This document shows, in pieces, positions 18,249-54,365 of a stretch of 64,000 bases of DNA (position 1 is its first letter; the number at the start of each line of letters is the position of its first letter). Below the pieces are notes generated by a model. That model was not told the origin of the DNA. It searched no databases and worked only from the letters and a program-made list of their open reading frames with translations. The stretch is from assembly GCA_964624415.1 (NCBI GenBank), contig CAZUWR010000001.1, positions 180,256 through 244,255 of the forward strand. The letters run 5' to 3'. The position numbers and the translations under genes were made by a program. The DNA comes from an uncultured Bdellovibrionales bacterium (lineage in GTDB: Bacteria; Patescibacteriota; Minisyncoccia; Moranbacterales; UBA1568).

Positions 18249-18402
18249 GGTTCTTCGCTTTATTCTCGATGGATTTTTAATGATTTTCTTGTTGCAAAAG
18301 ATTCTTTGAGAGTTTTCTTATGCAAAAGAATTTTTCAAGACCACTTGCGTACTCGCACTGGTCGGAAAAATTACTTTTGCAATAAGAAAACCCACTCGGA
18401 TC

Positions 18403-20156: not shown

Positions 20157-20216
20157 AGATTCTTTCCGTAATATTACAAAGTGTTTCCAAGTATTTTTTC
20201 CATCTTGTTTTTTTGG

Positions 20217-20284
20217 CTTTTGTATAGTATTTTTTCTCGCCTTTCGTCTTTGACCCGGCAGTTCAAAAAAACACTATACAAAAG
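20217..20284. repeat. Repeat copy 1: 19-20-bp terminal inverted repeats (cttttgtaNagtatttttt) flanking a 29-nt core ctcgcctttcgtctttgacccggcagttc
   Basis: Read directly. Copy 2 at 48446-48512 has the same inverted repeats and homologous outside flanks, but the core is reverse-complemented. Confidence 0.7.
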
Positions 20285-20346
20285 CAAAAAACGAAAAAGT
20301 TTTAGACAGTTACTTGAAACACTTCTTTCTACCTTTCACTTGTACC

Positions 20347-42963: not shown

Positions 42964-45900
42964 TTACTTCGGCATCACATAATCCCCTGCCGTTACATCC
43001 ACCACTATCCCCGAACCGAAAGCGAAGGTGGCGACGCTTTGCCAACTTTTCGTACCATTGGTCAGTGTCAGATAGGCATTGCCCCCAAACTCGGGAGGCA
43101 GTCCCGTAAAGACGAGAGTCCAGATACCACTTGATGAACGAGCAACCGTTCCGGCAATCAGTTTGGTTGCCTGACCGGTCGGAGCTATCCACGCATCGAA
43201 ATACCCGTCTTTGGTGATGTGAGAGATATTGGTAATACCGTTGAATGATGTCAGCATCCGACTATCGCCATTGATAGTAAGCGTCAGTTTTTGCTGGCCT
43301 TTGTCATAGGTCACCTCTCTTTTTTGAAAAGGACTGGCACTAAGTGGGAGTTTGTAGTCTCCATTGGCATTGACGATGGTTGCACCCACAGGTAGTATCC
43401 ACTGATTGGTGGTTTGCCATCCAAATTGAGTTCCATCAGTCAGTCCGAGAAGTATCCTTCCCGTGCTTCCCGGAGCGACGTTTGCTATGCTCGCTATCAG
43501 TTTCCCGTTCGCATCACAACTCAATTGCCCTGGCATTCCCGGATAATTGTCTTGGTCATTGTTCCAAAAGACTTTTCCGTTGAGGACAGTGCCTGTCGGG
43601 AGCCAGAATCCTGAAATGACCTTTGATGAGAAAGCGGTATTGAGCGCCATACCCGAAGCATCTTCACTGACCGTAACCGTATTGGGAGTCCATCCGTTGT
43701 AACGGATATGTCCATCGGTATCATTTTCTAAAAGAGTGATGGTACTTGGATTGACCCAGTATTCCGTATCCCCTTGTTTGAAAGACCACGTGCCTTTCGA
43801 AGCCTGAGGGGTGTTGGGAATATCCACTATCCAGTTGGTTCCTTGTAAAGTGAATGTATTGGCACAAGCTGTTGATGCAGTCACTCCCCAATTGGTATCG
43901 GCAGAATTAAAACAAATCCTTGTTACCAAGGACGGATGAAAAGAAGAGAAGCCTCCCCACACCAAACTGATTTTTGCTTGCACCAAGGTGGATGCAGGTA
44001 GAATCAGTCTTTGCTTGTTGTTCCCGAAAATGACCGCGCCGACGTCTCCACTTTGGATAGTCGGTATAGCGTTGAAGTCAGGGTCGGGCGCTTGCGCGCA
44101 ACTGGTGATGAGTGGGATGTTGGCCGGTTTATACACTATGGTATATACCGTCAACACCTTTTCAACACAGTTATCGCCTTCATTGGACTCGGCTATTTCC
44201 CCAAGATAATCGACACACGCTTTGAGAGTGTGCTGACCCGGAGTCGAAATCGAGAACTTCTCCAGCGTTTCCCGCTTGGTTTTACCTGTCGGTAAGTTTA
44301 TGGCCTGTACCTGGTCGGTACCCGCCAAGATACCGTCCCGATAGTAACCGATTTTGATAAGTTTATCCGCCAATCCGCCATCATTTCTGACTGTGAATCC
44401 GGGAGTAAACGTTTCATTGACTTCGATGACCTGTTCTCCGCCGAGGTCTATGGAGACACCGACGAGACTGGGTAACGGACGCACTTCATACGGCATCGAT
44501 TTGCAATTGTCCGTTTCATTGGTTTCCGCAATACGGTTATCAAAGTCGGGACAAACCATCAGCGTATGCATGCCGGGTGTCATCGGAGCGATAGCAACAC
44601 TAAGATTTTCCACCTTACTGACACCGCCCTTAAGATTTTCCCGTTGAATCCGGTCTGTACCAATGAGCGTGCCGTCATTGTAGTAGCCGATAAGCATGGT
44701 TTTTCCAAAGTTTTCTTCATTGTTTGTCAAAGTAGCGTCAATACTGAATGTTTCACCCGGAAGTAAAACGGTCTTATTGCCGATGATGGTTATATTGGTC
44801 GTCAATACATTAGCATTGCTCCACACAGTGAAAGGGTCTTCGATATGGCAATTGTCATTTTCTTTCAATTCCTTCACTTGACCCTGACTCGGTCCTGCGG
44901 AATCCGTACACCACACAAGATTGTACTTTCCCGGAAACTCCGGGGCAATAAAGTCTTCGTGCTCGGTATTGGTAGCGCCTTTGGCAAGACCTTTCGTATC
45001 TTCTTTGCCTTGGTCTTTCGGATTAGTGTCTATCTTATCCCCGTCGGATATCCAACACTGACTCTGAAACGCCGTCGCATCTTTAGTGCCGATATTCTTC
45101 GTCTGCATCCTGCAAAAGCCCGGTTCATTGATGTGCAATGTCGTGACCTTTGTCTTGGATGCGTTTTCGACATCGGAATTGTTGGCAATGAGATTGGCGA
45201 GTGTTCCGGTGTTGGTACCGCCGGTGACAGGCATCGGACCTGCGACTTCGGAACCGCCGCCAGCGTCTCCTGCACCTCTTGTACCTGCAAGAAAAACTGC
45301 ATCCTGAAAAAACATCATCGGGTTTACTGGTTTTTGTAAAGTATTGGCGCAATATGATTGTATTGCAGCATTACTCAGATTCCACGCCGCAGATAAAACA
45401 CCACCCTCACTTTTGAAATAATTTGTGTGAGAAGTTCCATTAACACAAGCTGAATTATTTACGCCTCTTGGATTCATCCAACACAAAATACCTCCTCCAA
45501 AGTTTTCATTAAGAACAAGACAATTTCCAGCACTATATCCATTAGATAAAATAAAATTAATGGGATTAGTATACTGTGATTTTATCCAATCGGAGTTGTG
45601 TCCAGCAACCTCGCAAAAATACGATGGATTAGTGGCTTTTTCATGCTCAGGTCTCCGCACTTCAAAGTGTAGATGTGCTGATCCTGACGCGCCATTATCC
45701 CATATACAACCAATCTGCTGACCAATTTTTATATTGTCGCCCAATTTTACTTTTGTGAATGAATGTCCCTTACCATTTACTGTTGACTGACATTGTACGG
45801 GATCCAGTTCAGCATGACCATAAATGGAGTAATATTGTACATTACCCATTGTATGCTCTAGAGAAATCCTTGACCAACCATTATCAATAACTGAAATGGC

Positions 45901-46185
45901 TTTTCCGTTAGCAATAGCATATATAGGAAAACCTTTATCTCCATTGGCAGTAGTGCCTTTTTTATTTATATCGACACCTGGATGAAGAATAGCTGAATCC
46001 CCACAGCTAGGATAAGGGGTAACATTGCCATTCGAAGCTTTGGTATCCTCTAAAAAATTATAACCAATCTGCTCAGATGGATTAAAATCAACGGGTGATC
46101 GAATCGTATTCTCACTATGCACTAAACATGGCATAGCCACTACCACAGATAAACCCAAACAAAACACTTTCGTTAGCTTTTTCAT
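42964..46185 (-). CDS. Large secreted M23-family metallopeptidase with multiple CARDB-like repeats and a C-terminal beta-rich domain
   Basis: 1073 aa with a signal peptide. The M23 motifs are HxxxD (GHAELD) and HxH (SAHLHFEV). CARDB-like repeats follow (PGMHTLMVCPDFDNRIAETNETDNC; TPGQHTLKACVDYLGEIAESNEGDNC). The C-terminal roughly 400 aa are Gly/Thr/Asn-rich. Confidence 0.7.
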   Translation of the reverse strand: MKKLTKVFCLGLSVVVAMPCLVHSENTIRSPVDFNPSEQIGYNFLEDTKASNGNVTPYPSCGDSAILHPGVDINKKGTTANGDKGFPIYAIANGKAISVIDNGWSRISLEHTMGNVQYYSIYGHAELDPVQCQSTVNGKGHSFTKVKLGDNIKIGQQIGCIWDNGASGSAHLHFEVRRPEHEKATNPSYFCEVAGHNSDWIKSQYTNPINFILSNGYSAGNCLVLNENFGGGILCWMNPRGVNNSACVNGTSHTNYFKSEGGVLSAAWNLSNAAIQSYCANTLQKPVNPMMFFQDAVFLAGTRGAGDAGGGSEVAGPMPVTGGTNTGTLANLIANNSDVENASKTKVTTLHINEPGFCRMQTKNIGTKDATAFQSQCWISDGDKIDTNPKDQGKEDTKGLAKGATNTEHEDFIAPEFPGKYNLVWCTDSAGPSQGQVKELKENDNCHIEDPFTVWSNANVLTTNITIIGNKTVLLPGETFSIDATLTNNEENFGKTMLIGYYNDGTLIGTDRIQRENLKGGVSKVENLSVAIAPMTPGMHTLMVCPDFDNRIAETNETDNCKSMPYEVRPLPSLVGVSIDLGGEQVIEVNETFTPGFTVRNDGGLADKLIKIGYYRDGILAGTDQVQAINLPTGKTKRETLEKFSISTPGQHTLKACVDYLGEIAESNEGDNCVEKVLTVYTIVYKPANIPLITSCAQAPDPDFNAIPTIQSGDVGAVIFGNNKQRLILPASTLVQAKISLVWGGFSSFHPSLVTRICFNSADTNWGVTASTACANTFTLQGTNWIVDIPNTPQASKGTWSFKQGDTEYWVNPSTITLLENDTDGHIRYNGWTPNTVTVSEDASGMALNTAFSSKVISGFWLPTGTVLNGKVFWNNDQDNYPGMPGQLSCDANGKLIASIANVAPGSTGRILLGLTDGTQFGWQTTNQWILPVGATIVNANGDYKLPLSASPFQKREVTYDKGQQKLTLTINGDSRMLTSFNGITNISHITKDGYFDAWIAPTGQATKLIAGTVARSSSGIWTLVFTGLPPEFGGNAYLTLTNGTKSWQSVATFAFGSGIVVDVTAGDYVMPK

Positions 46186-46297: not shown

Positions 46298-47035
46298 CTA
46301 ACGACTAGTCTCAATAAGACGAAAAGATTGAATGAATCCAAGGGATGTTCCGTGGATATTCGACATCTCATCAAACTCATAATTCCCTATACCTGAACTG
46401 GAAACATACGCATATTTCAGATCATCAACAGCTTCTTTTTGCTCTACGGAACGTTTCTCAAAAACAGCATACACAGCGCCACTCGCTCCATCTGTCTTTT
46501 GTATAGATACGTTTTGACGAAGTGGTTTAGATATAAACTGATTTCCAGATTCAGCTGCAAAATCTTTTTTCCACACAGTTATAGTTATACCATTTGGATA
46601 ACCGCTCAATGAACCCTTCTCTCCAAAGTAAAATGCATGCGCTCCATCCATACCGGAAGTAGTGAGTCCTAAATCAGTTTCGGTTACTACCCATTCACAA
46701 TCATACGTTTTTTGATTACAGTAATTACCATAACTTTTTTTCGGGTATTTAACTTCAAAACCAAACTCTTCATTGCGGTAAGTCTCCCAATTTGAAGTAT
46801 CGTCTGCTGTAGAAAAAAATTCTTGAGGAGGAATATATTGTGGCTCATAGGATTCCAATGTATCTGAAGTTAAGGGGATGTTACTTTTTGAAACATTAAT
46901 CGCTTGGGATATTTCTTGCTGCTGCTTTACTTCTCCTGGTTCCCGTACGGAAGCATACCAAAACCACCCACCGGCAACAATGGTGATAATGAGTACGATA
47001 ATAGCTACAATGAGCCTCTTTGAGATATTTTGCAT
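46298..47035 (-). CDS. Membrane-anchored protein of the MQNISK family (paralog of 25787..26509)
   Basis: N-terminus MQNISKRLIVAIIVLIITIVAGGWFWY. The 5' region, including about 40 nt upstream, is about 88% identical at the nucleotide level to 26429..26552. The remainder of the protein is divergent. Confidence 0.5.
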   Translation of the reverse strand: MQNISKRLIVAIIVLIITIVAGGWFWYASVREPGEVKQQQEISQAINVSKSNIPLTSDTLESYEPQYIPPQEFFSTADDTSNWETYRNEEFGFEVKYPKKSYGNYCNQKTYDCEWVVTETDLGLTTSGMDGAHAFYFGEKGSLSGYPNGITITVWKKDFAAESGNQFISKPLRQNVSIQKTDGASGAVYAVFEKRSVEQKEAVDDLKYAYVSSSGIGNYEFDEMSNIHGTSLGFIQSFRLIETSR

Positions 47036-47190: not shown

Positions 47191-48372
47191 TTACTGCAAG
47201 ATTACGCTTATCTTTTTTTCTTCTTTGCCGCGAACCACGAGAAACTCCGCCGTGTCACCCTTCTTCAATCGTCCCACCACCATCGAGAGCGGGTTATCCA
47301 GGTTTATTTCAGCACCGTTCACGGATACGATAATATCGTTGACCGCAAACATCGCCTTATCCGCAGGAGATCCGGCGATTACCGCCAATCCCAATTTTCC
47401 CGAAGGAGAATACACTAAGGCGCCATGATCGCGCTCAAAGTGATACGCAAGATTCATTTCCTGGGTAATGGAGCGGTAGTAGAGTCCCAGTACCGGTCGT
47501 GTGGCCAGATTGCCTGAAAGCTGCAGATCCAGGGATGACTTGATCACATTGGCTGGGATAACGAAGTACTGCTTCTGATTATCCAGTTCCGTCAACGCTA
47601 CCATACCTACCATTTCGCCGTTGTAGTTGATAACAGGTCCTCCGATATAGTCTTTCTGATTCGGAAAATCCATCACTAATACACCCTCCATCTTTTCAGA
47701 TGAAGAAACGGTCTTTTCCGAAAGATTGAATGTCTTGTCGACAGTATTGAGCAATGCGGTCGAAAATTGATCCTGATATCCCTGCGCGGCCATCGCCAAA
47801 GCGATAAGCTTTTTTCCCGAACGGACATCCGACGAATCCGCAAAAGAAATCGCCGGTACATTGGTCGCTTGAATTTTCAAATACGCGAGATTGGTCAGTG
47901 TATCGATTCCGACCAGGTCAGCGGTATAATTCACTCCGTTGAAAAGCACGACGGTATAGTGGGCATTCTTTTCAGTTATCGCCTTACGATACGTCACAAT
48001 CAATCCGTCATTGGTGACCAAAATACCCGATCCGACAAGCAAAGGCGAGGTCGCGGCAACGACCGGCGCATCCCCTACTGCCTTGGTATTTTTAACTTCA
48101 TCAGTCACGCTGACGATTTTCACGACAGCCGTCGTTGCTTGCGAGGCTATCTTTTCCACCGAATCATCTTCGCGTACCACCACCTGTTCCGTCTTGTTGA
48201 TGATGGTCGTAGTCTCGGTAGCTTTTTTCAAAAAAGCGAAACGGGAAAAAACGGATGAATCCGCAAACTTAGGAATAATGTATCGTTCGACTATAACGGA
48301 ACCGACACCTCCGAGGAACATAATCCAAAGAATCACTATCAGTATCCGACCGATTTTTTTCAACACATTCAT
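47191..48372 (-). CDS. HtrA/DegP-like trypsin-fold protein with PDZ domain and a degenerate catalytic triad (predicted inactive)
   Basis: 393 aa with an N-terminal TM anchor. Aligned to the S1C motifs it reads GSGILVTNDGLIVTYRKAI (His missing), NLAYLKI (Asp to Asn) and DYIGGPV in place of GNSGGP (Ser to Ile). The C-terminal PDZ domain is intact. Confidence 0.6.
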   Translation of the reverse strand: MNVLKKIGRILIVILWIMFLGGVGSVIVERYIIPKFADSSVFSRFAFLKKATETTTIINKTEQVVVREDDSVEKIASQATTAVVKIVSVTDEVKNTKAVGDAPVVAATSPLLVGSGILVTNDGLIVTYRKAITEKNAHYTVVLFNGVNYTADLVGIDTLTNLAYLKIQATNVPAISFADSSDVRSGKKLIALAMAAQGYQDQFSTALLNTVDKTFNLSEKTVSSSEKMEGVLVMDFPNQKDYIGGPVINYNGEMVGMVALTELDNQKQYFVIPANVIKSSLDLQLSGNLATRPVLGLYYRSITQEMNLAYHFERDHGALVYSPSGKLGLAVIAGSPADKAMFAVNDIIVSVNGAEINLDNPLSMVVGRLKKGDTAEFLVVRGKEEKKISVILQ

Positions 48373-48445
48373 ACATGCTATGCTATTAAAATTAAGTGTT
48401 CGCTTGGGGTAGCTCAGTAACTATCTGAAATCTTTTCGTTTTTTA

Positions 48446-48512
48446 CTTTTGTAGAGTATTTTTTCGAACTGCCGGGTCAAAGACGAAAGGCGAGAAAAAA
48501 TACTCTCAAAAG
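48446..48512. repeat. Repeat copy 2 (same inverted repeats and flanks as 20217..20284, core reverse-complemented)
   Basis: cttttgtagagtattttttc | gaactgccgggtcaaagacgaaaggcgag | aaaaaatactctcaaaag. About 17 nt upstream and 38 nt downstream are also homologous to the copy 1 flanks, in the same orientation. Confidence 0.7.
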
Positions 48513-48543
48513 TTAAAAAACAAGAAAAAGATTTGAACAGTTA

Positions 48544-49284
48544 CTAAGACACCGGGAGCCACCGCGTACTCGTCAGTACCATACCTATCAAAAAGATAAA
48601 GAGTACGGTATGGGCCAGAATATATTTTTTAGACAGCGTCTTCAAAAAATAGCTCTGCACCATATACCACAGCAGGTAGTAAAACATAAGCACCACCACT
48701 CCCGTAGTCAGATACCCAAAAGGCCAGAAATTGATAATCCAGGCCACCTCTGCCAAAGACAATCCAAGCAAGAGGCTGTATATACGTGCCAGGCGCGCAT
48801 CATTCTTATCGAAAATCAGAAAATACTGATAGCTTACCAGCGCCGTCGCAATGCAGTACGCCAACATCAATCCTCCAATGGGAATGGCGAAGTTAAGGTA
48901 TATGCCATATGCCCCCGCATAAAAGAGGAAAAGCGTGGACATGCTCGCAAAAGCCATCAATCCGCGGGCTGTCTGATCGCGCTTATAGTATCGTAACCTA
49001 TATATGCCTAAAAAAGCAAGGTAATAGGCACAAAAACTCAGCATGATTAGCAATTGTTGCTGCTTGAACGAATCGACCAGATACAGGATCATCACCGAAG
49101 AAAGGGCGAAAACAAGCGGTATTATCCCAGAAAAAGAGCTTTTCCCGAATTTTTTGGCGGCCTGAAACGTCACAAAAGCAATGGTGGCGGCGACCAAAAA
49201 CACCCACTCGTTCTGAAAGACGATGAGCTCGAGTCCGCAAAGGAACAACAACGCAGAGAAAAGGACGGAAAAATTGAAAAACAT
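48544..49284 (-). CDS. Hypothetical polytopic membrane protein
   Basis: 246 aa with about 7-8 TM helices and no recognisable catalytic motif. Confidence 0.4.
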   Translation of the reverse strand: MFFNFSVLFSALLFLCGLELIVFQNEWVFLVAATIAFVTFQAAKKFGKSSFSGIIPLVFALSSVMILYLVDSFKQQQLLIMLSFCAYYLAFLGIYRLRYYKRDQTARGLMAFASMSTLFLFYAGAYGIYLNFAIPIGGLMLAYCIATALVSYQYFLIFDKNDARLARIYSLLLGLSLAEVAWIINFWPFGYLTTGVVVLMFYYLLWYMVQSYFLKTLSKKYILAHTVLFIFLIGMVLTSTRWLPVS

Positions 49285-49377: not shown

Positions 49378-50673
49378 CTATTTCTTCTCTTCCAGTGTCA
49401 CTTTCACGGTTTTCGTCTCACCTTTGTGCCACACGGTCAACGACAACGTATCGCCCGGTTTATGATCAGCGATAACATCAGCCACCTGCTGATTGGCATC
49501 TATTTTCACACCATCGATCTCAGTAATCACATCGTTTTCCATAAGTCCGGCCTTATCGGCAGGAGACCCTGGTATGACGGCGAAGTCAGTCATTTTCTCT
49601 CCTCGCAAAATGAGCGCACCATGATCGACCGCTAAATTATTCTCTTTTTGAATTTCAGTCGTCAGCATACTGTAGCGGACTCCCAAATAAGCCGTCGTGA
49701 TCTTTCCGGTCGACTGCACCTGATCGATAATTTTTTTTATCTGATTGGCGGGAAGGGCAAATCCGATGCTCTGAGCCCCCTGCGCCATAGCAACATTCAC
49801 TCCGATGACTTTTCCTGAAATATTCAAGAGCGGCCCTCCGGAATTACCGGGATTGATAGCAGCATCGGTCTGAATGATATTGCTGAGGTATTCGCTTCCG
49901 CCCGCATCACCGCCAGCGACAAGATTCCGCCTCAGTCCTGATATGATTCCTTTGCTCACGGTATTGGAAAACTCGCCCAAAGAATTGCCGATGGCCACGA
50001 CACTTTGTCCGACCTTGATGGTATCAGAATTATCGAATTCGAGAAAAGGCATATTCTGCGCGTCGATTTTGAGTACAGCGATATCCCTGTTCGGATCACG
50101 TGCCAGCACCTTCGCCTTATACTCCTTTCCATCGGTCGTGATAACCGTATAATCCGCACCTGTCGAAGAAACCACATGCTTATTTGTAACAATCATACCA
50201 TCCGAAGACACCAGAAATCCCGAACCCTGACCGATAGTCTGTTTCTCGGTATCATTTCCTCCGGTAGCACCGCGATCTTGACTACCTTGCGGCATCATAA
50301 AAAAGGGAAATCCGAAGAAGCCATTACCCCTGTTTTGCAGTTTCGGGACATCCTGACTGATAACCACGCTCACAACAGCTGGTGAGGCTGCCTCGACCGT
50401 CGCTATGACCGCGGTATCTTCTGCGCCTATGTCTTGTTTCGTCGCGGAAGCATTCTGACTGCGTACGGATGATGACTGTTGCGGCAGATGCTTTGCCAAA
50501 AATGGCATCCGATGCTCTAGCGTCGGCAATGCCATGAAAGCCACCACTCCGCCCACAAAACCGGCGACAAGACCTAAAAGCATAGTAATAACTCTCTGGC
50601 TACAGCGAAAACGTCTAAACCTCTCTGTGTGCGTATTATTGACAGGCGTCTCTTTTTCAAAAGAATGATTCAT
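49378..50673 (-). CDS. HtrA/DegP-family serine protease (S1C) with PDZ domain
   Basis: The intact triad motifs are GSGFLVSSDGMIVTNKHVV (His), DIAVLKI (Asp) and GNSGGPLLN (Ser). There is a C-terminal PDZ domain and an N-terminal TM helix. Confidence 0.85.
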   Translation of the reverse strand: MNHSFEKETPVNNTHTERFRRFRCSQRVITMLLGLVAGFVGGVVAFMALPTLEHRMPFLAKHLPQQSSSVRSQNASATKQDIGAEDTAVIATVEAASPAVVSVVISQDVPKLQNRGNGFFGFPFFMMPQGSQDRGATGGNDTEKQTIGQGSGFLVSSDGMIVTNKHVVSSTGADYTVITTDGKEYKAKVLARDPNRDIAVLKIDAQNMPFLEFDNSDTIKVGQSVVAIGNSLGEFSNTVSKGIISGLRRNLVAGGDAGGSEYLSNIIQTDAAINPGNSGGPLLNISGKVIGVNVAMAQGAQSIGFALPANQIKKIIDQVQSTGKITTAYLGVRYSMLTTEIQKENNLAVDHGALILRGEKMTDFAVIPGSPADKAGLMENDVITEIDGVKIDANQQVADVIADHKPGDTLSLTVWHKGETKTVKVTLEEKK

Positions 50674-50707: not shown

Positions 50708-51766
50708 TTAGAAGAGAACGGAAGCGTCTCCTTGCGATGTCTGCAGTATGTTTTCTTCGAAAGACCTCATTTCCGGTTGTTTGAATTCGATGCGCGCCGT
50801 ATCCTTATCCCACATATATCCCTTGAATAATACTGTTACATTCATACGTTTCATCTGCTGTGTCAGCCAATCCGAAAACGTGACCTTTCTGGTAAAAATC
50901 TGTTTCATGCGAACCATTTCCTGACCCTGTTCCTGCTTGCGCTCTTCGATGGCGATGATATGAAACCCAAGCGAACTCTCGATAATATCACTCACCTGGT
51001 TGATAGCTTGCTTTTTCACCGTCGATGTGAGTTCCGGCGCCAATGAAGATATAGGGACCCATCCGAGTTCGCCGCCATCTGCAGCAGTATTACCCTGCGA
51101 GTATTCCTTGGCGACATCCGCGAAAGATTTTTTCTGCTTCAGGTCATTTTGTGCTGCGAGCGCACGATTCTTTGCATACGATGAAGTGTCGATATCTTTG
51201 GCATACACCGCCGCCAAAGCATCGCGGTACATTTCCGGCGCGACGATTTTATTCTCGAAATCATCCATGTCCCATCCGTACAAGCGCTTGAGTTTTGCTG
51301 ACACATCATCGCGATTATTTCCAAGCGCGCTTATTTTCTGATCGACAGCTGAACTGACCGCGTCTTGAGTAATGGTGATATGTCTATCCTGCGCCAGTAT
51401 CTGTATCGCTTTATCCTCGACCATCTTGTTCAACAATTCCTTTTCGCGTACCATCAACCGTTTCTGCCCATCCTCGGTCGAAAAATCAACACGGACACCC
51501 GCTTTCGATAACTCATCCGACTGGCTTTCGTAGAAACGCCGTATGGAGGCCATATCGGTATCGACATCATGAAACATAATCATATGTGTACCATTGACGA
51601 GAATAGCCGGCTGAGGCACGATGCTGCGTATACGGACAGAAGCCCCATTCTGAGGAAATAGATAGGTGAAAGCCGTCAGCCCCGCCACCAACACGAAAGC
51701 GATGATAAGGCCCGCTATCACTACCGATTTCACCCTGATACTTTTTGTATTCTCCTGTTCCTGCAT
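50708..51766 (-). CDS. Parvulin-type peptidyl-prolyl isomerase (PrsA/SurA-like foldase), membrane-anchored
   Basis: An N-terminal TM helix and a PpiC domain (FADVAKEYSQGNTAADGGELGWV...SSLGFHIIAIEE). Confidence 0.75.
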   Translation of the reverse strand: MQEQENTKSIRVKSVVIAGLIIAFVLVAGLTAFTYLFPQNGASVRIRSIVPQPAILVNGTHMIMFHDVDTDMASIRRFYESQSDELSKAGVRVDFSTEDGQKRLMVREKELLNKMVEDKAIQILAQDRHITITQDAVSSAVDQKISALGNNRDDVSAKLKRLYGWDMDDFENKIVAPEMYRDALAAVYAKDIDTSSYAKNRALAAQNDLKQKKSFADVAKEYSQGNTAADGGELGWVPISSLAPELTSTVKKQAINQVSDIIESSLGFHIIAIEERKQEQGQEMVRMKQIFTRKVTFSDWLTQQMKRMNVTVLFKGYMWDKDTARIEFKQPEMRSFEENILQTSQGDASVLF

Positions 51767-51796: not shown

Positions 51797-52192
51797 CTAC
51801 TTCGTAAAAAATTGACTCCACCACTTTTCGTAATTAGGAAGAAGGTTGTGTGCCCTGACTGAAAAAGAAGCCCCGTCGTCTTTCTGCGTAGGTTCATCGG
51901 GAACATTCGATTTAATCACCACCGTCTTTTCATTCGGGCTTTGGTAATTGAGCTTATCGCGAGCTTCCTGAGCTTGAAAAGCATCTGTCTGGAAATACTT
52001 TATTTTCTCCTCGAGTAGCGCATTTTCTTTCTGCGTCTTTTGCGCCTCCATTTGCAAAGAGGTGATTTCCTCTTGAATACGTTTTCCCCGATCCATTTCT
52101 TTCAGCGTAGCATTCCCCACCCAAAAAGCCAACGCAAGGGATATAAGTATGAACAACTTGGGGATGATAAAATGAAATGTTTTTCCAAGCAT
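51797..52192 (-). CDS. FtsB/DivIC-family septum formation initiator
   Basis: 131 aa with an N-terminal TM helix and a coiled coil (EITSLQMEAQKTQKENALLEEKIKYFQTD). Confidence 0.55.
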   Translation of the reverse strand: MLGKTFHFIIPKLFILISLALAFWVGNATLKEMDRGKRIQEEITSLQMEAQKTQKENALLEEKIKYFQTDAFQAQEARDKLNYQSPNEKTVVIKSNVPDEPTQKDDGASFSVRAHNLLPNYEKWWSQFFTK

Positions 52193-52445: not shown

Positions 52446-54365
52446 TTAAAAAAGAGCTGGGGTGCTGCGGGTATCGTCTGCGGGAGCATCGTCGGCTGGT
52501 GCACTTGGTTGAACAAGGGCAGTTGAAGGTGATGATGCATGCGCAAATTTCTTGGGCGCAATGTATTCCATCTGGGAAAGCGAGAGCGGTTTGGCATCGG
52601 AAACACGCACGCCTGAACGCACATTGTTCGCCTCAAATACTCCTTGAGAGGGCTGCGCCGCTCGCGGAGCCATAATGCGCGAACTTCCCTGCAATTCCTC
52701 TTTCGCCTTGGCTGCTGTACGCTGATATTCCTTGAGGTGATCGCGACAGAATGTCGGCCGTTTGCCATCCGGTTTGAAAGGCACATTGATTTCCGTATCG
52801 CACACGGCGCAGTACGCGATATACAATTGTTTTTCAACTACCGGTATCGGCTCTTGCGCCACAACATTGCCCGCAGGCATCGCGGCTATTTCTTGCGGCG
52901 CTACAGTAGCTGCCGGCGCAGACACGGCAGGGCGAGGCGAAGGTGCTACTGCCGATACAGGCGCAGCAAAGATTGGCGCAGGCATACGCTGTTGAGAAGC
53001 TGCTGCTGGCGTCACCGGCATACCGACCGGTCGCGCCGCCCGACTCTCCGCCACTCGACTGGCAAAAACCGCTCGCTCCGCCTCAGTGAGCATACCCGTC
53101 CAGCGCCTGATCTTATCCTCGACATCCTGCTTTTTGGATGTATAACGCTCCCGTGAAATACGGATAACCTTTTCGATATTCTCCGCGGTTCCGTGAAGCT
53201 CAATAGGCGGCAACACCGTCGCACTGAAAGCATCCCCTGCCACCCCATCGATCATCAATTTCAAATAGATATTAAACTTGGGCAAATTAACCAAATCGTT
53301 CACCATAAAAATCGGCTCGAATTCTTTTTCGAGAAATTCCGCATCGGCAGCACCGACTCGGAAGCTGATAATCGTACCCGCATTGCCGAAAATAGCATCA
53401 CGCACCTTCTCATCCACCTGAGACACATACTGGTTGGCAAGGATAAGGCTGAGGCGATATTTTCGAGCTTCGGACAAAATATTGGCAAAAGATTCCGTGG
53501 CGAAGTTTTGGAACTCATCGACATAGAGGAAAAAGTCCTTTCGGGTATCTTCTTCGATATCCACGCGACCCATCGCCGCCAACTGGATTTTCGTGATCAT
53601 CATCGCTCCCAACAAGGCACTGTTATCCTCACCGATACGTCCCTTGGCCAGATTGAGAATAAGGATTTTTTTCGAATCCATCGCTTCGCGCACATCAAAC
53701 GACGACTTGGTCTGTCCGACGATATTGCGGATAAGCGAGCTCGACAAAAACTGCCCGACCTTGTTTTGGATCGGCGCGATCACTTCCTGCAACACGCGAT
53801 CATTCCATTTGGTAAATTCATCCACCCAAAACGACTTCACTACCGGATCAGTCACTTTGTCCACCACGCGCTTGCGGTATTCTTTGTCTACCAATATCCT
53901 TGTGACGCCCAAAAGTGTGCTCCCAGGGTATTCCAAGAGCGCCAAGATGGCATTGCGCAAGATGTATTCCAAGCGAGGTCCCCACGAATCCGCCCAGATT
54001 TTTTTGAACACACCGACCAGACCCGAAGCGACCAAATGCCGATGCTCCAAACTCACGCTTTCCATCACATTAAAAGCTAATGGAAAATCCTGATCGGCCG
54101 GATTGAAATAGATGACATCATTGATACGATGAGCCGGAATAGCCTTGATAATCTTTTCAGCCGTGTCACCGTGCGGATCGATAAAAGCGACACCATGGCC
54201 GTGCTGGATGTCTTGGATGACCAGGTTCTCGAGCAGGTTCGTCTTTCCCATACCCGTCTTTCCGATCACGTACATATGGCGGCGCCGATCATCGGTCTTT
54301 ATACCGAATACCCGTTGCTGATTGCGAAAATTGGTCTTAGCAAAAAAAGTGATTTCTTGTTGCAT
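52446..54365 (-). CDS. P-loop NTPase of the TraD/TraG/VirD4 (type IV coupling protein, AAA_10/DUF87-like) family with a C-terminal Pro/Ala-rich linker and zinc ribbon
   Basis: Walker A IGKTGMGKTN; Walker B FFLYVDEFQNF. The C-terminus has a PAPIFAAPVSAVAPSPRPAVSAPAATVAP linker followed by CAVCDTEINVPFKPDGKRPTFCRDH (CxxC..CxxH). Confidence 0.55.
   Translation of the reverse strand: MQQEITFFAKTNFRNQQRVFGIKTDDRRRHMYVIGKTGMGKTNLLENLVIQDIQHGHGVAFIDPHGDTAEKIIKAIPAHRINDVIYFNPADQDFPLAFNVMESVSLEHRHLVASGLVGVFKKIWADSWGPRLEYILRNAILALLEYPGSTLLGVTRILVDKEYRKRVVDKVTDPVVKSFWVDEFTKWNDRVLQEVIAPIQNKVGQFLSSSLIRNIVGQTKSSFDVREAMDSKKILILNLAKGRIGEDNSALLGAMMITKIQLAAMGRVDIEEDTRKDFFLYVDEFQNFATESFANILSEARKYRLSLILANQYVSQVDEKVRDAIFGNAGTIISFRVGAADAEFLEKEFEPIFMVNDLVNLPKFNIYLKLMIDGVAGDAFSATVLPPIELHGTAENIEKVIRISRERYTSKKQDVEDKIRRWTGMLTEAERAVFASRVAESRAARPVGMPVTPAAASQQRMPAPIFAAPVSAVAPSPRPAVSAPAATVAPQEIAAMPAGNVVAQEPIPVVEKQLYIAYCAVCDTEINVPFKPDGKRPTFCRDHLKEYQRTAAKAKEELQGSSRIMAPRAAQPSQGVFEANNVRSGVRVSDAKPLSLSQMEYIAPKKFAHASSPSTALVQPSAPADDAPADDTRSTPALF

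Follow-up and report, generated by a model that had tools for sequence, protein, structure and literature searches.

What is a homologue of the protease HtrA kept for once its catalytic residues are gone? The question is raised by a stretch of 64,000 nucleotides (contig CAZUWR010000001.1, positions 180,256 to 244,255; hereafter the window) from a genome deposited under the name of an uncultured Bdellovibrionales bacterium and placed by GTDB among the Moranbacterales of the Patescibacteriota. Three genes on its minus strand bear on it: a canonical active-type HtrA of 431 amino acids (49378..50673; H166, D197 and S278, with a transmembrane (TM) anchor and one PDZ domain), a second HtrA homologue of 393 amino acids, here called pseudo-HtrA (47191..48372), and, between the two, a membrane protein of 246 amino acids (48544..49284). 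An earlier note on this DNA had read the second of these open reading frames (ORFs) as a natural pseudoprotease with a trypsin fold and a PDZ domain, in which all three catalytic residues are replaced. The three ORFs are all present as described, and BLASTP and phmmer alignments, Pfam and an AlphaFold2 (AF2) model bear out the description of the protein. Pseudo-HtrA belongs to an old clade of triad-less homologues, its near-constant neighbour is the membrane protein, a member of the Pfam family DUF5656, and it probably serves that neighbour as a binding subunit that does not cleave.

Loss of the catalytic triad in an HtrA lineage

Pseudo-HtrA is made up of a predicted N-terminal TM anchor (amino acids 10-28, 48289..48345; hydropathy score 2.76, AF2 helix over residues 2-37), a degenerate trypsin-like protease domain (amino acids 111-285, 47518..48042) and a single PDZ domain (amino acids 286-393, 47194..47517) that keeps the carboxylate-binding-loop motif R292-x-x-L-G296-L. 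In Pfam, it covers the Trypsin_2 model over its full length (positions 1-144 of 144, expectation value (E) 4e-14) and matches PDZ_2 over residues 317-392 (E 9e-12); the active paralog matches Trypsin_2 at E 9e-37, together with PDZ_2. The AF2 model, built with 72 homologues as input, has a predicted local distance difference test score (pLDDT) of 84.3, and its best Foldseek matches among solved structures are DegP, MucD, the Mycobacterium tuberculosis HtrA and DegS (E 4e-25 to 1e-20), led by DegP 12-mers and 24-mers at E 4e-25 and with DegS structures at about 1e-20. Two of the features that define the S1C family, a chymotrypsin/trypsin-fold domain and at least one C-terminal PDZ domain, are thus found by Pfam and, for the fold, by AF2 and Foldseek. 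The His-Asp-Ser triad is absent, as is the GNSGGP sequence of loop L1, which reads D-Y-I-G-G-P in pseudo-HtrA and retains only its GGP (clade consensus x-Y-[VIL]-G-G-P). Among the NCBIfam models tried (degP_htrA_DO, HhoA/HhoB/HtrA, DegS, DegQ and DegP), pseudo-HtrA stays under the cut-offs, with 115.9 bits against 416.2 for its best model, TIGR02037, and 65.5 against 423 for DegS; the active paralog, at 302.8 bits, misses the cut-off too. Pseudo-HtrA is hence of the HtrA lineage by homology and fold, yet lacks the catalytic features by which S1C is defined.

The positions of the triad are occupied by Lys130, Asn161 and Ile243 (codons 47983-47985, 47890-47892 and 47644-47646, minus strand), where the paralog has His166, Asp197 and Ser278. 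The BLASTP alignment of the two proteins (30% identity over 280 residues with one 1-residue gap, E 3e-40) pairs TYRK130AI with TNKH166VV, TN161LAYLKI with RD197IAVLKI and DYI243GGP with GNS278GGP, and phmmer alignments with human HTRA1 (3nzi, wild-type GNSGGP), a DegP-like protein and the Helicobacter pylori HtrA place the same three residues at the triad positions. On this evidence pseudo-HtrA would be non-catalytic. The two window proteins represent anciently diverged lineages, with 30% identity and separate clades, and not recent duplicates.

The loss is conserved. The triad is absent from 120 of the 120 closest database homologues of pseudo-HtrA (46-100% identity), one of which, P0001 on a 272-kb NCBI contig, is identical to the window protein. 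When each GTDB species was represented by one genome, a relative was found encoded in 192 genomes, and the best 80 loci were retained for the counts that follow. The ORF is intact in all 80 (332-473 amino acids by longest-ORF calling). The first triad position is never His but E, N, S, T, D, K or G, in free variation; the second is Asn in 67 loci, Asp in 8 and Gly in 5; the third is never Ser, being Val in 50, Ile in 20 and Leu in 10. A triad moved to other conserved positions, which the earlier note had named as an outcome that would overturn its reading, is ruled out: no alignment column of the degenerate group holds a conserved His (highest frequency 27.5%), and only Val, Ile or Leu takes the place of the old nucleophile. 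When 1.84 billion 50%-identity representatives were searched with a profile, the top 36 clusters all proved triad-less, and a His/Asp/Ser protein was first reached at about 305 bits. Neighbour-joining groups the window protein with the 80 syntenic pseudo-HtrAs and 22 representatives in a clade without a single His/Asp/Ser member; the largest purely degenerate clade comprises 131 leaves, and the 50 syntenic active HtrAs, all of which have His/Asp/Ser (50 of 50), form a clade of their own. Triad-less HtrA homologues are therefore an old clade in the Moranbacteria and related Patescibacteria, spanning dozens of 50%-identity clusters and kept across well over a hundred species.

Nearly all named homologues and related genome records are metagenome-assembled genomes (MAGs) of Candidatus Moranbacteria/Moraniibacteriota or of the "Patescibacteria group". 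Numerous MAG records that carry this Moranbacteria-type cluster at 43-52% identity are titled "uncultured Bdellovibrionales bacterium" (L002, L007, L009, L011, L013 and about 30 others, with CAY and CAZ accessions), and these titles look like taxonomic mislabels. Members of the triad-less clade (P0002, P0062, P0063 and others) bear the public names "S1C family serine protease", "serine protease Do" or "2-alkenal reductase"; their designation as proteases is very probably mistaken throughout the clade.

Purifying selection acts on the gene. Between pseudo-HtrA and its closest orthologue (76% identity) the proportion of synonymous differences (pS) is 0.77, which is saturated, and that of nonsynonymous differences (pN) is 0.146; in the same genome comparison pN is 0.198 for the active HtrA and 0.187 for DUF5656. 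What is conserved in place of the triad falls into two sets. On the one hand, the pseudo-HtrA group keeps residues of the HtrA scaffold (G116, D122, G123, T127, D157, G186 and the GGP of loop L1) and of the PDZ domain, where the R292/L295/G296/L297 motif is conserved, G296 being invariant and R292, Y298 and Y299 nearly so. On the other hand, it shows features specific to the clade: T-Y-R where T-N-x-H stood, a loop S225-E-K-x-E229-G-V (S225 in 79%, K227 in 80% and E229 in 81% of the degenerate group), a conserved linker (…T-I-I-N-K-T-E-Q…) joining the membrane helix to the protease domain, and a conserved R381 in the PDZ domain. The SEKxEGV loop, the N-terminal linker and R381 indicate newly constrained surfaces. 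Mean pairwise identity, compared over the same 49 genomes plus the window, is 53% for the protease domain of pseudo-HtrA against 70% for that of the active HtrA, 53% against 62% for the PDZ domain, and 44% against 31% for the N-terminal TM segment and linker. Constraint on the former catalytic domain is thus relaxed, not gone, and there is new constraint near the membrane.

The DUF5656 partner and the gene neighbourhood

The membrane protein encoded between the two HtrA genes on the same strand, for which the earlier note knew no family, is a member of DUF5656 (PF18900): it passes the Pfam gathering threshold (28.5 bits against 23.3), and all 64 of its 64 homologues match the same family (best E 6e-14), while none of the 64 members shows a TauE match. 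Its AF2 model (pLDDT 92.1, predicted template modelling score 0.89) has nine helices. The distribution of Lys and Arg, with 13 in predicted cytoplasmic loops and 2 in outside loops, indicates a probable N-in, C-out topology, in which both the C-terminal tail and the invariant N-F-W-P-F-G-Y-L-T loop would be exposed on the outer side of the membrane. The bulk of pseudo-HtrA, whose anchor is preceded by K5, K6 and R9, would by the positive-inside rule lie on that same side, with its N-terminus inside. The DUF5656 tail is fixed in register, as [KR]-W-[LIVM]-P-x-Φ or P-W-[RH]-I-Φ-V (Φ, hydrophobic), and always ends four residues after an invariant Trp; among 135 members the last residue is Val or Ile in 117, and nearly all are Val, Ile, Ala or Leu. 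The DUF5656 partners of distant HtrA-like proteins end in …KWTY, …QWTF, …RWELAV and …SWFI.

The association of the two genes is close to strict. Upstream DNA of at least 900 bp is available for 73 loci, and in 72 of them DUF5656 immediately precedes pseudo-HtrA, L015 being the exception, with spacers mostly shorter than 130 bp. The gene directly upstream of DUF5656 is more variable: it is the active HtrA in about 31 of the 72 loci, as in the window, ClpB in 35 and PpiC in 2. The window and at least 50 related loci have an active HtrA in this cluster; several loci have none. The ClpB disaggregase (about 880 amino acids, with Clp_N, two AAA domains and ClpB_D2-small) is encoded at 2562-5231 of L001, at 1562-4201 of L082 and in 33 other loci, 35 of the 80 in total; a tblastn search of the 64-kb window gave no match to it. 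The three-gene module of the earlier note accordingly stands in part: the active HtrA and the PpiC foldase do lie upstream in a recurrent cluster, but the invariant unit is DUF5656 followed by pseudo-HtrA, set within a looser proteostasis cluster.

The pairing extends to far more divergent proteins. In 8 of 11 distant HtrA-like representatives with upstream DNA, DUF5656 lies directly upstream, and the HtrA-like partner ranges from degenerate (P0140, and P0155, where an active HtrA precedes DUF5656 as in the window) through A/R/V (P0166, in the order ClpB-DUF5656-pseudo-HtrA), S/D/L (P0185), E/D/S (P0188), S/E/S (P0178) and H/D/T (P0198, with only a 49-amino-acid upstream fragment that matches the DUF5656 hidden Markov model at E 1e-6) to a full H/D/S triad (P0157). 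The three without DUF5656 upstream are P0172 and P0174, both H/D/S and in a GatCAB context, and the degenerate P0177, so that one of the three His/Asp/Ser proteins looked up is paired. Furthermore, a metagenome scan seeded with distant DUF5656 proteins returned 20 loci, among them seven more DUF5656-HtrA pairs in which all seven partners are degenerate (Q/N/S twice, S/E/S, N/D/S, N/N/L twice and N/G/D). DUF5656 pairing thus marks one HtrA lineage, within which triad loss is graded and His seems most often to have been the first residue lost. Such a gradation suggests that proteolysis is dispensable for the role of the pair.

In the window, the minus-strand cluster runs from a TrwB/TraG/HerA-like ATPase with a C-terminal treble-clef zinc finger (52446-54365) through a DivIC-like protein (51797-52192), a membrane-anchored PpiC-type peptidyl-prolyl isomerase (50708..51766; Rotamase E 6e-18, SurA_N_3 E 1.6e-5, TM segment 15-33) and the active HtrA to DUF5656 and pseudo-HtrA. 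The PrsA/SurA-like PpiC foldase is the first gene of the recurrent cluster and syntenic in most loci. In about 25 related loci the ATPase and DivIC-like genes are found in synteny ahead of the PpiC-HtrA cluster (51-82% identity), and given this conserved order the ATPase looks as if it belonged to the core genes and not to a mobile conjugation system. On the other side, the gene downstream of pseudo-HtrA (46298..47035) has a homologue in none of the 80 loci and is outside the module. Further downstream, 42964-46185 (minus strand) encodes a secreted protein of 1073 amino acids that has an M23 peptidase domain at its N-terminus and also two CARDB domains, and no counterpart of it was found at the same position in related loci. 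Distant DUF5656-HtrA loci have neighbours of their own: a Cys-rich DUF5679 protein of about 50 amino acids is encoded upstream of DUF5656 (L091 1894-2043, L092 271-429, L096 3052-3207), and the HtrA-like gene is followed by one for a Wzz/GNVR-like chain-length determinant (L088 2071-2706, L092 2793-3461, L095 5501-6493). Neither was found at the window locus.

The spacer between DUF5656 and pseudo-HtrA is filled by a palindromic hairpin (48408..48545; 33-nt arms at 48433-48465 and 48494-48526) with a folding energy of -49.7 kcal/mol (z -8.2). A second copy at about 20190-20300 has an identical 29-nt loop, GAACTGCCGGGTCAAAGACGAAAGGCGAG, lies on the opposite strand relative to its flanking genes and differs in its stems, where the changes are apparently compensating; a third, looser hairpin at about 18310-18400 has only the GAAAAA(A/T)TACT arm ends in common with them. 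All three sit between co-directional minus-strand genes, the element occurs in both orientations within the window, and its 13-nt core is found there 11 times against 2.2 expected. It is absent from the closest orthologous locus, L001, which has a spacer of 28 bp, and is hence not part of the conserved module. The earlier note had pseudo-HtrA transcribed from the region of this element; as a repeated palindrome missing from L001, in a spacer where no sigma-70-like promoter was found, it does not support that proposal. A CIRCE/HrcA-type heat-shock operator or a known RNA is ruled out by its absence from L001, by its two orientations in the window and by an Rfam scan that returned sub-threshold chance matches and no family; nor does the sequence resemble the CIRCE consensus. 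The hairpin may be an element of the miniature inverted-repeat transposable element or repetitive extragenic palindromic type, or a protein-binding site.

A proposed binding subunit and competing explanations

In the reading favoured here, pseudo-HtrA is probably that subunit of a DUF5656 membrane complex which binds peptides or proteins without catalysis. It would be anchored in the cytoplasmic membrane by its one N-terminal helix, with the degenerate protease and PDZ domains outside the cell, and would form with the nine-helix DUF5656 protein a complex whose HtrA-like part binds without cleaving, as a holdase or an adaptor, using the PDZ groove and the retained scaffold of the substrate cleft. 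The task of the complex would be quality control of extracytoplasmic proteins, alongside the PpiC-type foldase and the true HtrA. One step of this mechanism is offered more tentatively. The PDZ domains of HtrA proteins such as DegS and DegP recognise short hydrophobic C-termini, and since the C-terminus of DUF5656, short, hydrophobic and of fixed length, is a candidate ligand of this type, the PDZ domain of pseudo-HtrA may dock the probably external DUF5656 tail and so tether or regulate the complex, though we would not count on it. More doubtful again is a wider conjecture: that DUF5656 and its HtrA-like neighbour could be a hitherto unrecognised two-protein membrane machine of the Patescibacteria, with the Trp-x-x-x-hydrophobic tail as a built-in PDZ ligand and an HtrA subunit that would have shifted from protease, via partial forms, to a structural or regulatory lid or adaptor, proteolysis never having been essential.

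Several observations weigh against the binding-subunit reading or parts of it. The predicted lack of activity is itself read from sequence. The faster evolution of the protease domain in pseudo-HtrA than in the active HtrA fits relaxed constraint there. The DUF5656 tail of the window (48544-48564) ends in …RWLPVS, a terminal Ser seen in 1 of 135 members. Covariation of the DUF5656 tail class (WxPxΦ or PWRIΦV) with the PDZ domain is confounded, as each class corresponds to one of two deep subclades, which the active HtrA follows just as well. The DUF5656 model has no Foldseek match among solved structures (best E 1.0) and gives no functional clue. Lastly, 12 of the 20 metagenome DUF5656 loci lack an HtrA-like ORF downstream; short contigs account for several of them, and longer ones show a YebC-RuvC-DUF5656 … XerC-like context, so that DUF5656 is not strictly dependent on an HtrA-like partner. 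In one HtrA-less lineage (L107-L112), about 750-920 bp after DUF5656 hold no ORF of 70 or more amino acids under genetic code 11 (e.g. L108 3809-4578).

The best surviving alternative makes pseudo-HtrA a regulatory partner of the neighbouring active HtrA, forming mixed oligomers with it or activating or restraining it in the manner of MamO and MamE. The presence of an active HtrA in the cluster of so many loci favours this, as do published precedents: MamO promotes proteolysis by MamE irrespective of its own triad, duplicated MamE copies have repeatedly lost their triads (PMC4794232), and inactive plant DegP-like proteins have been proposed as modulators of active ones (PMC1560137). The active HtrA is not a constant neighbour, however, being adjacent in fewer than half of the loci and elsewhere parted from the pair by ClpB or absent; 30% identity and separate clades make mixed trimers less likely; and on distant contigs DUF5656-paired HtrA-like proteins occur without a second HtrA in view. 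We regard this explanation as unlikely.

We rate lower still a stand-alone, membrane-tethered holdase, the natural equivalent of DegP S210A, for which adjacency to DUF5656 would reflect co-regulation only. The retention of the HtrA fold and PDZ domain and the proteostasis theme of the cluster (PpiC foldase, HtrA and, in many genomes, ClpB) are in its favour, and Escherichia coli DegP S210A does retain chaperone activity, though the chaperone or anti-protease role that the earlier note put forward is speculative. The DegP chaperone, however, is a cage-forming oligomer with two PDZ domains, and pseudo-HtrA has one PDZ domain and a membrane anchor; moreover, an adjacency that holds in all but one of the scored loci, and also in very divergent relatives, is tighter than co-regulation usually gives.

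An enzyme with a non-canonical site, such as the S225/K227/E229 loop or a conserved Thr or Tyr, is very improbable. The clade does conserve polar residues of its own at S225, K227 and E229, along with Y128 and T127, one DUF5656-paired relative reads H-D-T, and MamO also has Thr at the nucleophile position; but disorder is predicted for the S-E-K loop (pLDDT below 50 at residues 221-225), and the degenerate group combines a former nucleophile that is always aliphatic with a former His position free to vary and no conserved His anywhere. A decaying pseudogene or annotation artefact, for which the triad loss itself speaks and nothing more, can be dismissed: decay, the other outcome that the earlier note thought fatal to its reading, is refuted by ORFs intact in every locus and a pN far below pS, and a relative encoded in 192 species-level genomes with a confident AF2 fold is no artefact.

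The clade matters in several ways. The database annotation of its members as proteases is almost certainly in need of correction. The HtrA lineage tied to DUF5656 is a naturally replicated series, from full triad through partial to complete loss, that suits the study of how a protease becomes a pseudoenzyme and of the roles of HtrA folds that do not cut. For DUF5656, which has no structural relative among solved structures, the pairing is a first functional handle. Bacteria of the Candidate Phyla Radiation (CPR), with their small genomes, presumably depend on other cells, and the retention of a second, non-catalytic HtrA in well over a hundred species therefore implies a real role at the cell surface.

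Relation to known HtrA systems

HtrA pseudoproteases as such are already known, and what is new here is the strict partnership with DUF5656 and the graded triad loss within it; the papers searched, on HtrA in CPR bacteria, on proteases in Moranbacteria and on DUF5656, yielded no description of the pseudo-HtrA family and no mention of DUF5656. Plant DegP-like proteins without catalytic residues, for which chaperone or modulatory roles have been speculated (PMC1560137), resemble pseudo-HtrA as HtrA homologues with substituted catalytic residues. Unlike pseudo-HtrA, they are eukaryotic and organellar, and many are without a PDZ domain. We know of no conserved membrane-protein partner for them.

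Among bacterial systems, the earlier note had suggested an envelope-stress module, which in the E. coli DegP/DegS sense is a loose analogy because an outer membrane is generally held to be absent from CPR bacteria. Secretion quality control of the Gram-positive type, where HtrA and PrsA form a quality-control pair, is closer: in both cases an HtrA and a foldase of the parvulin type, each with a membrane anchor, are encoded together in a bacterium generally regarded as being without an outer membrane. To our knowledge, neither a triad-less HtrA subunit nor a DUF5656 partner has been described in the Gram-positive systems. With E. coli DegP and DegQ pseudo-HtrA shares a homologous protease fold and PDZ1 and, as an idea, function without proteolysis, for which DegP S210A is the model; it differs in having one PDZ domain instead of two, in being membrane-anchored and not soluble and, in comparison with S210A, in the natural loss of all three residues together with the oxyanion-hole Asn-Ser. 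In architecture it is closer to E. coli DegS, with an N-terminal anchor, a protease-fold domain and one PDZ domain. DegS is activated by C-terminal peptides, and pseudo-HtrA keeps the carboxylate-binding loop and has a candidate hydrophobic C-terminal ligand at hand. Unlike DegS, pseudo-HtrA has no triad with which to cleave an RseA-like substrate, and its proposed ligand would be a neighbouring inner-membrane protein in place of outer-membrane porins.

The closest precedent is provided by MamO and the degenerate MamE paralogs of magnetotactic bacteria. Pseudo-HtrA is not a member of the MamO family: it arose independently, in CPR bacteria and not in Proteobacteria, it has no magnetosome context, it lacks the surface di-His metal site of MamO (there being no conserved His), and, unlike MamO, it keeps its PDZ domain. 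Its membrane module is a separate gene, for DUF5656 and not TauE, and pseudo-HtrA itself has a single TM anchor, whereas the non-catalytic activation of MamE by MamO requires the polytopic TauE domain fused to it (Hershey et al. 2016, PMC4794232). Both are nevertheless bacterial HtrA-family proteins with a degenerate triad, kept under selection beside an active HtrA paralog, and in both a non-catalytic role would be tied to a polytopic membrane module, in MamO a fused TauE-like transporter and in the Moranbacteria the DUF5656 protein encoded next to pseudo-HtrA.

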